A stretch of 5,563 nucleotides of DNA from a virus: IMG/VR virus record IMGVR_UViG_3300045988_096647; one strand, given 5' to 3'. Of this stretch, positions 368 through 5,563 are shown one piece after another (position 1 is the stretch's first letter; each line of letters opens with the position of its first letter). The notes below the pieces were generated by a model. That model had not been told where the DNA came from and searched no databases. It worked only from the letters and a program-made list of their open reading frames with translations. The position numbers and the translations under genes were made by a program.

Positions 368-500
368 GGAAAAGGGGCATGTATAATAAAATATCTACAG
401 TACGGCAATCAGCAAAAACCGTTTTAAAACATGTCCAACAGGGGAAAGGTTATACACAACAAAATATCTGCCGTACGACAAAATACTAAAGACGAAAACC
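368..500. repeat. Two imperfect direct repeats of ~55 bp (A 368..420, B 441..500) with 73-bp periodicity. The conserved core is AAAATATCTNCNGTACGNCAA (A 388..408, B 461..481; 18/21 identical), flanked by GGGRAAAGG on one side and RAAAACC on the other. The repeats lie in the non-coding interval between the J-like ORF and the rep start; copy B overlaps the 3' end of the J-like ORF (486..599). Candidate rep promoter/operator or origin-associated iterons.
   Basis: Direct alignment of the two segments from the sequence. Copy B also contains TTATACACA (450..458), which matches the DnaA-box consensus TTATNCACA. Both copies contain a GTACG core. Confidence 0.6.
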
Positions 501-599
501 ACCACGCATCGGAATGGGGCGCTTGTTCTTCGGATTAACTGTCATACCACGTCTAAAATTTTTACTAGATTTCTTTTTACTCATTTTGTTTCGTTTCAT
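486..599 (-). CDS. Small, highly basic DNA-binding protein, 37 aa. It is analogous to phiX174 J and to the Chlamydia-phage/gokushovirus ORF8 (VP8) DNA-packaging protein. It is absent from the supplied ORF track because it is shorter than 60 aa.
   Basis: Hand translation of the minus strand from ATG at 599 to the TAG stop at 488..486 gives MKRNKMSKKKSSKNFRRGMTVNPKNKRPIPMRGGFRL (13 K/R in 37 residues). A GAAAGGA ribosome-binding site lies 8 nt upstream. It sits in the intergenic space on the coding strand just upstream of rep. The C-terminal RGGFRL resembles the ends of gokushovirus small basic proteins; this is from memory and unverified. Confidence 0.65.
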   Translation of the reverse strand: MKRNKMSKKKSSKNFRRGMTVNPKNKRPIPMRGGFRL

Positions 600-708
600 A
601 ATATCAATCCTTTCTCAAAATAAAGCATCAATAATGCTGACAACAAAAACCAATACAACAAACGCAATGGACAAAGCAAGCAACGAAGCGCAGCAAAACA
701 AAATAAAC

Positions 709-915
709 TTAATCATGTTTTAAACTCTCCTCAAAATTCTCCGAACTCCGAAGGCTTTCGCCGGATAAAATCCGAATAAAGAAGCCAACATCAACTTTAT
801 GACGAAGAAATAAAAGGGGCATACGGTTATATATCCGAATGACCTCGAGGAACTGTTTTAAACGCAGATATTCGCTCTCCGTACAATAAATACTTCTACT
901 TTTCTTGACATCCAT
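709..915 (-). CDS. Hypothetical protein, 68 aa (orf68); no recognisable family.
   Basis: ATG at 915 is preceded by a GAGAGG ribosome-binding site with a 9-nt spacer, and by a near-consensus sigma70 promoter. It is on the coding strand in an otherwise gene-free interval between VP2 and the J-like ORF. Sequence: MDVKKSRSIYCTESEYLRLKQFLEVIRIYNRMPLLFLRHKVDVGFFIRILSGESLRSSENFEESLKHD. Confidence 0.45.
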   Translation of the reverse strand: MDVKKSRSIYCTESEYLRLKQFLEVIRIYNRMPLLFLRHKVDVGFFIRILSGESLRSSENFEESLKHD

Positions 916-931
916 TTAAATCAACCTCTCT

Positions 932-988
932 TTCTATGTTTAAAGTATAACATAATTTAAATAGAATGTCAATAGAAATATAATAGAA
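932..988. repeat. Hexamer repeats around the promoter. ATAGAA occurs three times on the plus strand at exact 11-bp phasing (961..966, 972..977, 983..988), with an inverted copy TTCTAT at 932..937 on the other side of the -10 element. Operator-like arrangement.
   Basis: Read directly from the sequence. The three direct copies span the -35 element; the inverted copy lies between the -10 and the ribosome-binding site. Confidence 0.5.
944..972 (-). promoter_or_regulatory. Candidate sigma70-type promoter on the coding strand: -35 TTGACA (972..967), 17-bp spacer, -10 TATACT (949..944). It would drive orf68 and possibly the J-like ORF and rep.
   Basis: Minus-strand sequence reads TTCTATTGACAttctatttaaattatgtTATACTttaaacatagaaagagaggttgatttaaATG. 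The hexamers match the consensus at 6/6 and 5/6 with optimal spacing, about 35 nt upstream of the orf68 ribosome-binding site and ATG. Confidence 0.5.
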
Positions 989-990
989 AT

Positions 991-1965
991 TTACTTGAAA
1001 AGTCTAGGAATTAAACCTAACGGACTGGCATCAGCAAGACCCTTGGCATTGCCAAGTATACGAGATAAATTTTCATACAAACCATTAGGATCCACACCCG
1101 AATAGCGATTTTGAACCTGATATTGCTTCAAATCGATTTCAGAACGAACACGATTAATATACTTCAACGCATTGTCTTCACTCTGACCTTTAGCCTGAAG
1201 GATCTCAACAAATGTACGGGCATTAAGTTCACCTTGTATATACTTCTGAGTAAGATATTTAACTTGATTTAATTGAGTTTCCGAATCAAGGCGCAAAACC
1301 TCATGCATATTTTTTTCAATATCACTATCAATTTTAGCGATTTCATGAGGTAAAAGCGCATTAATACGATTTGTCTGCGCGCCAAGATTTGCAGTCGTTG
1401 CGTTCGCAACATCCGTTTGAGGGCCTTGAATATAACGTGCCTCAGCATTTGTTTTAGAAGTAAGACTACCAGATGTATAGTCAGCCGAAGCAGTTAAAGA
1501 ATTGGCATTCGCAAGCATCTGCGCAATCTGCGATTCTAAAAGTAATGCTTGATAATCTGCAGAAATAGCAGCACTACGACCTTCCATTTCTTTTTTATAC
1601 GTATCAGCTTGCATATTGTCATTTTGAAATTCAAGATTTTTTTGCTGTTGTTCTTGAACTTTACGAGATGTTCTCGCATTATACATATTGGACATGGCGT
1701 TCACACCATTTGAGATATCAGTACCATAGCCAGTATACGCGCCATTAGCACCTTGTGGAGTGCTAGCGCCACTGCCACCAGTAGCGGAAAGAATAGGATT
1801 TAAACCAGCTTTACGAAGATCAGAAACTTCGCGTTGATGAGCCGTATTGCTCATCCGCTCCTGGAACGCCATTTGCTCACGATTCATACCAGCTTGCGCA
1901 TTAGCAGATTTATTAGCAGACCAAATACCAAGCGCAGCGCCAGCAACAGAAGATAACCAACTCAT
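991..1965 (-). CDS. Minor capsid / DNA pilot protein (Microviridae VP2, phiX174 H-like), 324 aa.
   Basis: Position immediately downstream of VP1 on the coding strand. An AAGGAG ribosome-binding site sits 9 nt upstream of ATG 1965 and overlaps the VP1 stop (TAAGGAG). The N-terminus is hydrophobic and Gly-rich ([13 protein letters not shown]). The motif [16 protein letters not shown] is typical of gokushovirus VP2. The central region is long, Q/N-rich and predicted coiled-coil. Confidence 0.85.
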
Positions 1966-1978
1966 ACATCATCGCTCC

Positions 1979-3619
1979 TTAGAAATGATCAAGCATACCA
2001 GGAACACCGTAAACAGGCATAGGACGAGCGCATTTGAGATCCAAATATACATCAAGATAAAATTGTGGTTCATTCTGTACGGCGCTGATACGCTTAATTG
2101 CTTGATAACTAGCCTGATCCTGAATAAACTCACCATTAAGAGCTGGAAGCGAATCAAATTTTTGAGCAAAATGCCATACGTCAACAGATTGAGCGTATGT
2201 AGAACGCATCTTACCGGTGATAATAGAAGGATGATACCGACATTCTGCATAACGTTCCTGATAGCCAAAAACATCGTTATCAGCAGCAGTACCTTGTGCA
2301 TAAATTTCCTTATTGAGGACGGCCTGTTCGCCAAGATGAGCAAAAGAAGGCCAATAAAACTCTTCACGAGTCTGACGAAGCCACGTTTTGTTAATACCTT
2401 GCTGATAGCTTAAATCAGTACGAACATTGCAAAGACCGATAACGATACCATGTTCAGTAAAAGATTTATTAAATCCATGAATTTTAGTAGACATTAATGC
2501 ATACGCAGACAGATTACCTTGCGGACTCGTCGTATCGGTAGAGCTTGTCTGCTGGACAGGATTAAACATAATCGGCGTAGAATCACCGCCAAGATATTCA
2601 GAACGCTGCAAACGGGCATCAGGAGAAATAACACCAAAATGCGAACGAATAATTTCAGTATAACGCGTACCACCACGAGCGTCTTTTTCATAAAAACGCT
2701 GAAGAGCAAATGCGGAACGCAACGAATTAATCGTGACCGCCGTTGCAGAAGATAAGTCAACCTTGGCTACCGAAGCATCAGCAGACCAACCTTTAACATG
2801 GCCCGAAAATTTAGGAAGACCAGAAACACCATGATAAAAAGAAAAAGAACGATCAAAGGAGTCAGAAACAGACAAAGAACCTGAAACAGAAGGATCAGAA
2901 GATTCTATAGTACCAGAAATCGGCAAAAATCCGGAAACGGAAGCAGTTTGACCTAACGGCAATTCAACACCAGGGCCTTTTTGAGGCCAGGGCAAAGCAC
3001 TTGTAAAATAATCATGACGCTTGCCGCGGTAAAAGCATATAGCACTTGTAGCATCTTGTGTGGCATCACCACCGTAAGCATCATCATCAGAAGACGCAGC
3101 AGAAAGCGGTTGACCGGTCTGAATAGATACAGCATTCTGCAGATTTTCATCACGGAACCAATCGTTATATACTTTCCAATACGCCCTAAACGGAAACGCA
3201 GAAACACTCAATTTGTTTTGGACATCTGTTGGAAAACCGAAATAGTCCCATAACGTCTGTACCTGCGCATTAGTAGCCGTGATTTGGGGAACTTCGTATT
3301 CTTTAGACTGATAACCTGCAAGCGGATTTTCGCCATTAAACTCTCGCCAATGTTTCCACAACAAACGATATGGAACAAAAAAGAAAAATGTATCCATGTA
3401 AGCATTATCCATTGCCGGAACAATCGGTGTGGCCATTCGGCCAAAAAGAGTAGCTTTACAATTAAATGTATCGCCTGGATAAACTTCATCAATATAAAAA
3501 GGAACAAGACGTCCTGCGTCTAATGTCGTTTTAACAGTATGGCTACGCTTAAAAGAAGAACGAGGTATCTGATTTTGTGGAGCCATAGCAAAATTATGCT
3601 GACTAGCATTCTTTGACAT
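1979..3619 (-). CDS. Major capsid protein VP1 (Microviridae F-like, single jelly-roll), 546 aa from ATG at 3619. The ORF track's start at 3658 is a TTG with no Shine-Dalgarno sequence.
   Basis: It is the longest ORF. The N-terminus MSKNASQHNFAMAPQNQIPRSSFKRSHTVKTTLDAGRLVPFYIDEVYPGDTF matches the conserved gokushovirus VP1 N-terminal pattern (RS.F..SH..KTT.D.G.LVP...DEV.PGDT). A GGAG lies 10 nt upstream of ATG 3619. A Ser-rich variable insertion, corresponding to ~2711..2959, is consistent with the three-fold 'mushroom' loop of gokushovirus capsids. Confidence 0.95.
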   Translation of the reverse strand: MSKNASQHNFAMAPQNQIPRSSFKRSHTVKTTLDAGRLVPFYIDEVYPGDTFNCKATLFGRMATPIVPAMDNAYMDTFFFFVPYRLLWKHWREFNGENPLAGYQSKEYEVPQITATNAQVQTLWDYFGFPTDVQNKLSVSAFPFRAYWKVYNDWFRDENLQNAVSIQTGQPLSAASSDDDAYGGDATQDATSAICFYRGKRHDYFTSALPWPQKGPGVELPLGQTASVSGFLPISGTIESSDPSVSGSLSVSDSFDRSFSFYHGVSGLPKFSGHVKGWSADASVAKVDLSSATAVTINSLRSAFALQRFYEKDARGGTRYTEIIRSHFGVISPDARLQRSEYLGGDSTPIMFNPVQQTSSTDTTSPQGNLSAYALMSTKIHGFNKSFTEHGIVIGLCNVRTDLSYQQGINKTWLRQTREEFYWPSFAHLGEQAVLNKEIYAQGTAADNDVFGYQERYAECRYHPSIITGKMRSTYAQSVDVWHFAQKFDSLPALNGEFIQDQASYQAIKRISAVQNEPQFYLDVYLDLKCARPMPVYGVPGMLDHF

Positions 3620-3673
3620 ATTTATACATCTCCGATCTACAATATTTAACACCCTCAAAATAGGGAGGTGTCA

Positions 3674-3779: not shown

Positions 3780-4226
3780 TTATTCAGTAACCGAATTTCC
3801 TGCACTATTATTCAACTTATTCGCATTAATATTGGAATCTTGCTGTTCAATGGTAGTCTTAGTAGCAAGGCCCATCGCAACTAATTCATCAACATTATTC
3901 GGGTTATCGACGAATTCCAAAAAAGCACCAGGATCATAGTTAAAACGTTTTCGAATATCAAGTGGAAGATTATCGAAATTAGCTTTAGCTTGAAGCATCT
4001 GATTGTACATCTCCTGTGCACTATCCGGAAGCTCTGCAAAATCAGCAAAAATGGGTTCAGAAGGCTGACCATCGCCATGGAAAGAAGGCATAACACCCGA
4101 AGAATTATACATCGCAATAATATAATTGATATCGGCTTCATCTTTAAATTGCTGCTGCGTCAAAGACGGTAGGCTAGAAGACCAGCCAGCACGAACGCCA
4201 GCATCATATCTAGAGCGTATCTCCAT
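3780..4226 (-). CDS. Internal scaffolding protein VP3 (phiX174 B-like functional analogue), 148 aa from ATG 4226. An in-frame upstream ATG at 4316, with its own ribosome-binding site, would give 178 aa.
   Basis: Position directly upstream of VP1. Typical gokushovirus VP3 size. The sequence MEIRSRYDAGVRAGWSSSLPSLTQQQFKDEADINYIIAMYN...PLDIRKRFNYDPGAFLEFVDNPNN has the acidic/aromatic character and SL..QQFKDE.DIN pattern of gokushovirus VP3 (from memory). An AAAGGAG ribosome-binding site lies 8 nt upstream of ATG 4226. Confidence 0.8.
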   Translation of the reverse strand: MEIRSRYDAGVRAGWSSSLPSLTQQQFKDEADINYIIAMYNSSGVMPSFHGDGQPSEPIFADFAELPDSAQEMYNQMLQAKANFDNLPLDIRKRFNYDPGAFLEFVDNPNNVDELVAMGLATKTTIEQQDSNINANKLNNSAGNSVTE

Positions 4227-4488
4227 TACTTTCACTCCTTTCGACATTAGCACACTGCATAGCATGACAAACAAAAGTAGGCATATCATACGGTCTAAGA
4301 AGACCCTTAACATCATCAAACTCTCCTAAACAATATAAATGAAAATCACCTAAATGCTGACTAACTGTACTCCGAGAATCATTGCATAAATCAGTAAAGC
4401 TGCGAATAGAAACCAAGTCATTAACGGCAAAATACGGCGTATTAAAGACTTGTGCCTTATCATCCATGATACTATAAATTTTAAGCAT
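4210..4488 (-). CDS. Small non-structural protein, 92 aa, VP5-like (gokushovirus ORF5 family; proposed phiX174 C-like role in ssDNA synthesis/packaging). The family assignment is tentative.
   Basis: An AAAGGAG ribosome-binding site lies 10 nt upstream of ATG 4488. Its position between rep and VP3 and its size match gokushovirus VP5. The N-terminal pattern KIYSIMDDKAQVFNTPYFAVNDLVSIRSFTDLCND resembles the VP5 consensus (..D.K...F..PFF..N...A.R.F.D..N) as I recall it. The 3' end overlaps the VP3 start by 17 nt in another frame. Confidence 0.6.
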   Translation of the reverse strand: MLKIYSIMDDKAQVFNTPYFAVNDLVSIRSFTDLCNDSRSTVSQHLGDFHLYCLGEFDDVKGLLRPYDMPTFVCHAMQCANVERSESNGDTL

Positions 4489-4715
4489 TTATAAACAACT
4501 CCTTTGAAAATATCAAAAATAAAATCAAAGAAAACGGTGAAAATAACGGTCAAGATACGTTTTAGAATAGCGAAAATATAATCCATTCCTTCCATGAAAA
4601 TATTTAGTAGTATACGGAGAAAAACAAACAACATCAGTAATATCAGTACTCCGTGTTTGACAGAAAATGCGGAATAAATCGAATCTATCAAAAGATTCGT
4701 AAGCTCGGTGAACAT
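4350..4715 (-). CDS. Speculative overprinted ORF, 121 aa, with three predicted transmembrane-like segments. It is embedded out of frame across orf66, the orf66-VP5 spacer and the 5' half of VP5. Candidate membrane or lysis protein, or a composition artefact.
   Basis: 121 stop-free codons in the third frame of a T-rich region. Hydrophobic stretches: GVLILLMLFVFLRILLNIF, YIFAILKRILTVIFTVFFDFIF and LPLMTWFLFAALLIYAMILGV. ATG 4715 lies 10 nt downstream of the orf66 ATG, so the shared AAAGGAG is 16 nt upstream, which is suboptimal. T-rich DNA yields F/L/I-rich products in any frame. Confidence 0.2.
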   Translation of the reverse strand: MFTELTNLLIDSIYSAFSVKHGVLILLMLFVFLRILLNIFMEGMDYIFAILKRILTVIFTVFFDFIFDIFKGVVYKCLKFIVSWMIRHKSLIRRILPLMTWFLFAALLIYAMILGVQLVSI

Positions 4716-4725
4716 ATATGCGCAT
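4525..4725 (-). CDS. Hypothetical small basic/aromatic protein, 66 aa (orf66), starting at the internal ATG 4725 of the listed 80-aa ORF.
   Basis: An AAAGGAG ribosome-binding site lies exactly 6 nt upstream of ATG 4725 (ctAAAGGAGtcgtatATG). Sequence: MRIYVHRAYESFDRFDLFRIFCQTRSTDITDVVCFSPYTTKYFHGRNGLYFRYSKTYLDRYFHRFL, rich in R/Y/F/H. It is on the coding strand in the rep-VP5 interval. No family recognised. Confidence 0.5.
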   Translation of the reverse strand: MRIYVHRAYESFDRFDLFRIFCQTRSTDITDVVCFSPYTTKYFHGRNGLYFRYSKTYLDRYFHRFL

Positions 4726-4866
4726 ATACGACTCCTTTAGCGAGAAAAGTCCAGAGAAGAACGTCACAAACCGGAGGCTTCACCTACCTTTCAATTTTTA
4801 AAATAAAAAAAACCCTCTCGCTAATATAAGAATATCAAACGGGGGGGGCAAAAAAGCAAATAACAA

Positions 4867-5563
4867 TTATTCATATTCATCCAAATCATTATGAAATCGT
4901 CGAACAAGTCTCATAAGTTTTCGGGCTTTTAAACGTTCTTGAACTTCCATAAATTCAGCTTCTTCTGAAGATATAAGCTCAGCACGACGAAATTTATCTT
5001 GACGAGATTTTTTAACACGCGCAAAAAGATCAGGATCGTCTTTTTCAAGAAGGGAATCGTAATAAACAGGAGGCTTACAAGTAACGCCATCGCGAACAAC
5101 AATAAAATCGTTCGGATATATCTGACTTCTATACTTCTCATACCAATCATGGCCAAGACCAGGCATTCGAGACATCAAAACAAATGGTTGTGTATCTTCA
5201 TCAATATTATCTCCTTTCTGCTTTTTCATGACATAACGAGCAACATACGCACAACTCTCAAACGTAACAAAGCCAACAAGAGAAAAACCATACGGCCAAA
5301 GCGATTCAAGAGACGGACTACGGTAATACTGATAACCACGTTTAACCGTGTGAATAAACAAATCAGGAAACTGAAAGCCAAACAAGACAGCATGATAATG
5401 CGGTCTATGTCGTTGATGGCCATACTCACCACAAGCAAAAAAACGAATACCAGAGCCAAATTTTTTACGAAGACGTTTCATGAATTTCTGAAACACTTCC
5501 TTGTGAACGCGACCATCAACAGGAATGTTTTCAGGATTGTATGTAAGAGTAATAAAGCTGCCA
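4867..5563 (-). CDS. Replication initiation protein (VP4 / A-like), C-terminal segment. The in-window ORF 4867..5496 is the 3' part of the gene; coding continues upstream through the window end. Positions 5445..5563 duplicate 1..119, so this is the same gene as feature 1..340.
   Basis: The HUH motif YGHQRHRPHYHAVLFG and the two-tyrosine catalytic motif YVARYVMKK (compare phiX174 A protein YVAKYVNKK) are present. It is contiguous in frame with the N-terminal segment across the circular junction. Stop codon at 4867..4869. Confidence 0.93.
   Translation of the reverse strand, partial: GSFITLTYNPENIPVDGRVHKEVFQKFMKRLRKKFGSGIRFFACGEYGHQRHRPHYHAVLFGFQFPDLFIHTVKRGYQYYRSPSLESLWPYGFSLVGFVTFESCAYVARYVMKKQKGDNIDEDTQPFVLMSRMPGLGHDWYEKYRSQIYPNDFIVVRDGVTCKPPVYYDSLLEKDDPDLFARVKKSRQDKFRRAELISSEEAEFMEVQERLKARKLMRLVRRFHNDLDEYE
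5445..5563. repeat. Terminal redundancy: an exact 119-bp copy of positions 1..119. It is an artefact of linearising the 5444-bp circular genome, not a biological repeat.
   Basis: Exact identity of 1..119 with 5445..5563 read from the sequence. The rep ORF is continuous across the junction. Confidence 0.95.

Follow-up and report, generated by a model that had tools for sequence, protein, structure and literature searches.

The J protein of phiX174 is said to enter the procapsid together with the single-stranded DNA and to dock by its C-terminus in the capsid protein. Published work likewise describes J as escorting ssDNA into the procapsid, and presents VP8 of the gokushoviruses as an Arg/Lys-rich polypeptide which is analogous to J and important for DNA packaging (PMC11281519). 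This account places VP8 on the capsid interior of both SpV4 and phiEC6098, where VP1 encloses its C-terminus, and in the case of phiEC6098 gives the C-terminal 10 residues as the only ordered part (PMC11281519). The N-terminal residues of SpV4 VP8 face the inside of the capsid, and order is seen in them only when the particles are filled with DNA (PMC11281519). Structural conservation between VP8 and J is limited to the C-terminal residues, which are buried in the capsid protein; only the last four residues of the two proteins superpose, and the N-terminus of VP8 is directed toward the 5-fold axis and not the 2-fold one (PMC11281519). VP8 has also been reported as a conserved protein by which the gokushoviral subfamilies are linked, in a group of viruses, the microviruses, where a single coding strand carries all of the genes (PMC9239249), and it takes the last place in the gene order VP4–VP5–VP3–VP1–VP2–VP8 reported for the enterogokushoviruses (PMC7062461).

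The DNA analysed here (IMG/VR record IMGVR_UViG_3300045988_096647; the window, referring to the whole stretch of 5,563 nt) comes from a virus typical of the Gokushovirinae. The two ends of the window are exact copies of each other over 119 nt (positions 1–119 = 5445–5563), and this terminal redundancy indicates that the window represents a circularly permuted complete circular genome of 5444 nt in which the rep ORF spans the circular junction. Every gene recognisable from the ORF list and from Pfam and PHROG searches lies on the minus strand. These include rep (VP4), which runs from 341 through the junction to 4867 (REP_ORF2-G2P and phrog_942), VP5 (4488..4210; Phage_ORF5), the VP3 scaffold (within 4319..3780; Chlamy_scaf), VP1 (3658..1979; Phage_F, E 2.8e-168) and the VP2 pilot protein (1965..991). 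The region between VP2 and rep contains orf68, a hydrophobic 33-aa ORF (orf33) and the 37-codon ORF with which we are concerned (ORF37), and the complete minus-strand order is VP4–VP5–VP3–VP1–VP2–(orf68, orf33)–ORF37–VP4. A second IMG/VR record, IMGVR_UViG_3300045988_035660, shares 99.9% identity with the window, and the nearest GenBank relatives are microviruses from pig faeces with ~78–80% identity over the alignable parts. We note that the interval between rep and VP5 (4866..4489, minus strand) also contains overlapping candidate ORFs, of which one would encode a 121-aa hydrophobic protein (4715..4350) and overlaps VP5, and the second has a GTG start and is 80 aa in length (4767..4525, minus strand). 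These have no Pfam match, and the PHROG search returned only a marginal match for the 121-aa ORF (phrog_6771, E 0.064). A poly-A / poly-G tract is located at ~4802–4850.

ORF37 was found on the minus strand at 486..599 (37 codons at 599..489 followed by a TAG stop at 488..486), and its ATG-initiated product, MKRNKMSKKKSSKNFRRGMTVNPKNKRPIPMRGGFRL, is exactly the 37-aa peptide quoted in the initial annotation, where a K/R content of 35% had been given; the count is 14 of 37 residues or 38% (8 K + 6 R). The peptide contains no D or E, has a net charge of +14 and a mass of 4406 Da, and 12 of the 14 basic residues are found in an N-terminal arm (aa 1–27; 519..599, minus strand) which would be the ssDNA-binding and charge-neutralising part of the protein. 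At the other end, MRGGFRL (aa 31–37; 489..509, minus strand) is the putative anchor in a hydrophobic pocket of VP1. A Shine-Dalgarno-like GAAAGGA site can be read from the reverse complement of 608..614 (minus strand), and the 8 nt claimed to separate it from the ATG are exactly those at 600–607. AAGGA, AAGGAG or GAGGAA is present 7–9 nt upstream of the ORF in 13 relatives, these being all of the relatives for which upstream sequence is available. The earlier placement of ORF37 on the coding strand upstream of rep is also correct, except that it is not the sole ORF between orf68 and rep, as the conserved 33-aa ORF (716..615, minus strand) is found there too.

The VP8-like identity that had been proposed for this peptide agrees with our searches, in which ORF37 is homologous by sequence to the ORF8/VP8 proteins of Chp2, phiMH2K and phiEC6098. 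ORF37 matches phrog_10695 over its full length (37/37 aa, E 1.9e-8), and this family is also matched by Chp2 ORF8 (E 5.8e-19), phiEC6098 VP8 (E 1.9e-10) and phiMH2K ORF8 (E 8e-8), as well as by a protein of bajarodmic virus 248 annotated in GenBank as 'DNA binding protein' (E 2.3e-9). In a direct BLASTP comparison ORF37 shares 47% identity over its full length with phiMH2K ORF8 (E 2e-7), which is annotated in its own record as 'putative DNA binding protein; similar to phiX174 J'. An alignment of 14 sequences including those of Chp2 and phiMH2K gives the family signature MKRxKMSxKxSxKNFRRG..V..KN..P.PMRGGxRL, in which R3, F15, N25, R32, G33, G34 and R36 are invariant, and the C-terminal RGGxR[LMFI]-stop motif is present in ORF37, which ends in MRGGFRL followed by the stop codon. 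The family profile matches PDB 8DES chain E, the phiEC6098 'putative DNA binding protein', with E 2.5e-9, whereas the single ORF37 sequence does so with only E 0.038; here MRGGFRL aligns with the MRGGIRL of phiEC6098 VP8, and six of the last 10 residues match ARSMRGGIRL. The same profile searched against PDB at E ≤ 10 retrieved neither SpV4 VP8 nor phiX174 J.

The E-values obtained with ORF37 are modest because the peptide is short and compositionally biased, and a profile was built from three named VP8s only in order to exclude a purely compositional match. ORF37 scores 29.9 bits on this profile, while 2000 shuffled sequences of the same composition have a mean score of -1.1 (SD 2.3) and a maximum of 12.3. 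A phmmer search with the single sequence against 1.84 billion representatives found nine matches at E ≤ 1e-3, a low number which reflects the statistics of short peptides rather than the absence of a family. A weak match of ORF37 to SBDS_domain_II (E 0.14) was dismissed as noise. ORF37 is the gene immediately upstream of rep, as are Chp2 ORF8 (before ORF4) and phiMH2K ORF8, and since the gene order of the window matches that of the enterogokushoviruses, synteny agrees with the VP8 identity. As far as sequence can tell, ORF37 has every defining feature of the gokushovirus VP8 family.

The conservation of ORF37 was assessed in the window plus 14 relatives (seven GenBank records and seven IMG/VR contigs, making 15 distinct nucleotide sequences) which were gathered by tblastn on a phage collection and by a degenerate DNA pattern search of IMG/VR. 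The tblastn alignments covered residues 18–37 of ORF37 only, probably owing to low-complexity masking of the basic N-terminus, and conservation over the full length was therefore read from the loci of the relatives. Both of the signs of a gene that the initial annotation had looked to in related genomes, a conserved frame and purifying selection, are present, and neither of those that it had feared, frameshifts or stops on the one hand and a non-coding pattern of substitution on the other, is seen in the 15 sequences. The frame, the ATG and the length of 37 codons are kept in 15/15 with a stop codon which varies between TAG, TGA and TAA. The relatives differ from the window at 19–25 of the 111 nt of ORF37 (17–23%; ~78–83% identity) and at 2–4 of the 37 residues of the protein, the variable columns at codon positions 1/2/3 number 7/3/28 across the 15 sequences, and the pooled pN is 0.037 compared with a pS of 0.56 (calculated from the first eight sequences). 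Synonymous changes are also found at codons 2–4 (AAA/AAG, CGA/CGG and CAA/CAG), and this indicates that the start is the first ATG and not Met6.

An ORF as short as this one, lying near a repeat-bearing intergenic region, might be a chance open frame in A-rich DNA, conserved on account of an origin, a promoter or another non-coding element, and none of the sequences has a stop in antisense frame 1 either. However, variable columns are found at 28 of the 37 third positions and at 3 of the 37 second positions, a codon-position pattern which indicates protein coding in the ORF37 frame, has the wrong periodicity for the antisense frame, and effectively refutes a chance origin. ORF37 is also free of indels, whereas its flanks are far more variable and contain them, and its profile score to the named VP8s is well outside the range of the shuffled controls; we consider a chance frame to be next to impossible. 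A 69-aa ORF on the plus strand (514..723) overlaps the same region and might be taken as the real coding gene, but the periodicity of the substitutions fits the minus-strand frame, the plus-strand frames over the region are interrupted by stops in some relatives, and conservation of the start, stop and sequence of the plus-strand ORF was not observed across the relatives. All of the recognisable genes of the genome are on the other strand as well, and a plus-strand gene at this position seems to us extremely improbable. By its pattern of substitution, ORF37 is instead a genuine gene under strong purifying selection.

The spacer of 145 nt between the stop codon of ORF37 and the ATG of rep (342–487) is a degenerate tandem duplication of ~73 nt, with a direct-repeat core at 355–408 / 428–481 (70% identity; 43 of the 73 positions are identical in register). 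The 3' end of ORF37 had been described as overlapping repeat B, but the core ends 5 nt past the stop codon, and the 73-nt register touches the stop codon only, where it is poorly aligned, so that any overlap is marginal at most. A stable ssDNA hairpin such as might be expected of an origin was also considered for the spacer and rejected, as the predicted fold is no better than those of shuffled sequences (z = -0.15). In two relatives, L001 and L004, the spacer is likewise enlarged by the duplication and has a comparable length (140 nt). Ten other loci with a detected rep start have a spacer of 18–34 nt, and L003 gave no match to a rep start. The short gap to rep seen in most of the relatives, and the position of ORF8 directly before rep in Chp2 and phiMH2K, would suit an ORF whose main function is to set the level of rep, either as an upstream ORF or as a device for translational coupling, and whose peptide matters little. 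However, it is the amino acid sequence and not merely the open frame that is under strong purifying selection, and homologues have been located in virions (PDB 8DES_E; PMC11281519). The gap of 140–145 nt in the window, L001 and L004, together with the GAGG-type site that rep has of its own, further argues against obligatory coupling, and we regard such a device as very unlikely. ORF37 could nonetheless have a secondary regulatory role beside its coding function as VP8.

Upstream of ORF37, the hydrophobic ORF (615–716, minus strand; 33 aa, MIKFILFCCASLLALSIAFVVLVFVVSIIDALF) has a mean hydropathy of 2.6 and ends in a TGA which adjoins the Shine-Dalgarno site of VP8, with the stop 15 nt before the VP8 ATG. 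It is found with the same position and length in most of the relatives as two types, MIKFILFCW...IDALF and MKVxTPVALFCWLVL...LDVFL, is missing from the sibling type of L001 only by sequence divergence, and is frame-broken in L016. The variable columns by codon position number 11/7/15 in five relatives, and no match was found in Pfam or PHROG. orf68 (709–915, minus strand) shares 8 nt with the start of the hydrophobic ORF. It is conserved in the relatives with the motif K(S/T)RS(I/V)YCxxxEYxRLKxxLxxIRV(Y/F)D, and again no family match was found in Pfam or PHROG. Just upstream of orf68 there is a strong sigma-70-like site (972..944, minus strand; TTGACA-17-TATACT with TG, 11/12 matches) which could drive an orf68–orf33–VP8 transcript. 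In one relative (L015, IMGVR_UViG_3300045988_096731) the hydrophobic ORF and the first 10 codons of VP8 are locally duplicated ~250 nt upstream of VP8, and the result is a chimeric ORF, MKRQKMSKKKNESWYS..., which precedes the intact copy. The 33-aa product is a candidate single-pass membrane peptide, for which a role in lysis is speculative; to our knowledge, no lysis gene has been described for the gokushoviruses. A more elaborate scheme can be drawn for the pig-gut clade in which VP8 is the last gene of a conserved orf68/33-aa/VP8 module, the hydrophobic peptide is a putative lysis or membrane-targeting factor with its translation coordinated with that of VP8, and VP8 modulates rep. We find this scheme doubtful.

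Our preferred reading, which we hold with a probability of about 0.9, is that ORF37 is a VP8/ORF8 gene encoding a 4.4-kDa, +14 virion-internal DNA-binding protein whose mechanism can be proposed from that of its homologues. It is likewise from the homologues that we infer DNA binding and incorporation into the virion. ORF37 would be translated from its own Shine-Dalgarno site, on a transcript that is probably shared with the upstream small ORFs and possibly with rep. During packaging the basic arm (aa 1–27) would bind the nascent single-stranded genome by its phosphate backbone, and the peptide would enter the procapsid together with it, where MRGGFRL may dock in a hydrophobic pocket at the inner surface of VP1 and in this way tether the DNA to the shell. 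If each VP1 has one copy, as the solved structures show, the resulting 60 copies (an assumed number) would provide 840 positive charges to 5444 phosphates and neutralise ~15% of these, with the same calculation giving ~13% for phiX174 J.

As a member of a well-known core family, ORF37 is ordinary, and only the functional label is missing from the databases. The initial annotation had called it unannotated, which holds for the close relatives in GenBank, whose records have no feature at the matching position, and not elsewhere, as the exact peptide has been called on 17 public contigs. The 90% cluster to which ORF37 belongs has 46 members, some of them on hundreds of contigs, and these are 'hypothetical protein' wherever they are named, as is the ORF37 peptide itself in IMG, ENA and NCBI. 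The label given to phrog_10695 in PHROGs is 'unknown function', and no VP8 model was found in Pfam or NCBIfam. The comment that small basic genes are missed by automated annotation is a fair one, with the GenBank relatives omitting the gene and others leaving it unlabelled. The value of our analysis is mainly for annotation, as with the VP8 label the core gene set (VP1–5 plus VP8) is complete for this genome and for its clade, and the VP2–rep interval is shown to be coding. No new biology is involved, because VP8 is already established as a structurally observed component of the gokushovirus virion.

It was also suggested at the outset that short-ORF searches might connect ORF37 with phiX174 J as well as with ORF8/VP8, and it is only the second of these connections that was found. 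phiX174 J matches PF04726 (Microvir_J; E 1.7e-16) and phrog_2354 ('DNA condensation'), whereas ORF37 has no match to PF04726 at E ≤ 10 and none to phrog_2354. Established VP8s likewise match neither of these families, and for the ORF8 proteins of Chp2 and phiMH2K there is no PF04726 match at E ≤ 10. ORF37 is therefore an analogue of J and not a member of the J family, and the accurate label is 'VP8, functional analogue of J'. The two proteins are comparable in size and charge (38 aa and +12 for J, 37 aa and +14 for ORF37), and have in common an architecture of a basic N-terminal DNA-binding arm and a hydrophobic C-terminal capsid anchor, which in ORF37 are predicted, and by inspection both end in GG-x-x-hydrophobic (GGFRL in ORF37 and GGQQF in J). 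This common architecture supports the view that ORF37 would work like J, and not that it belongs with J, and since there is no detectable sequence relationship between them, a J-like mechanism for ORF37 draws on analogy and on the gokushovirus structures.

The comparison with the gokushovirus VP8s is closer, and here it is to phiEC6098 VP8, rather than to SpV4 VP8, that the ORF37 family is linked by sequence. Known VP8s are 38–44 aa in length compared with the 37 aa of ORF37, and both are extremely basic and without acidic residues. The motifs MKRxKMS at the N-terminus and MRGG[IFY]R[LMF] at the C-terminus, before the stop, are also common to both, as are an F and an N in the centre. ORF37 differs from the known VP8s in the way expected of an ordinary divergent member, with a proline-rich NPKNKRPIP linker. 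At the level of the locus, the clade to which ORF37 belongs has two extra conserved small ORFs, orf68 and the 33-aa hydrophobic ORF, between VP2 and VP8, and when the window alone is set against the known VP8 loci it is further distinguished by the repeat-bearing spacer of 145 nt which separates VP8 from rep.
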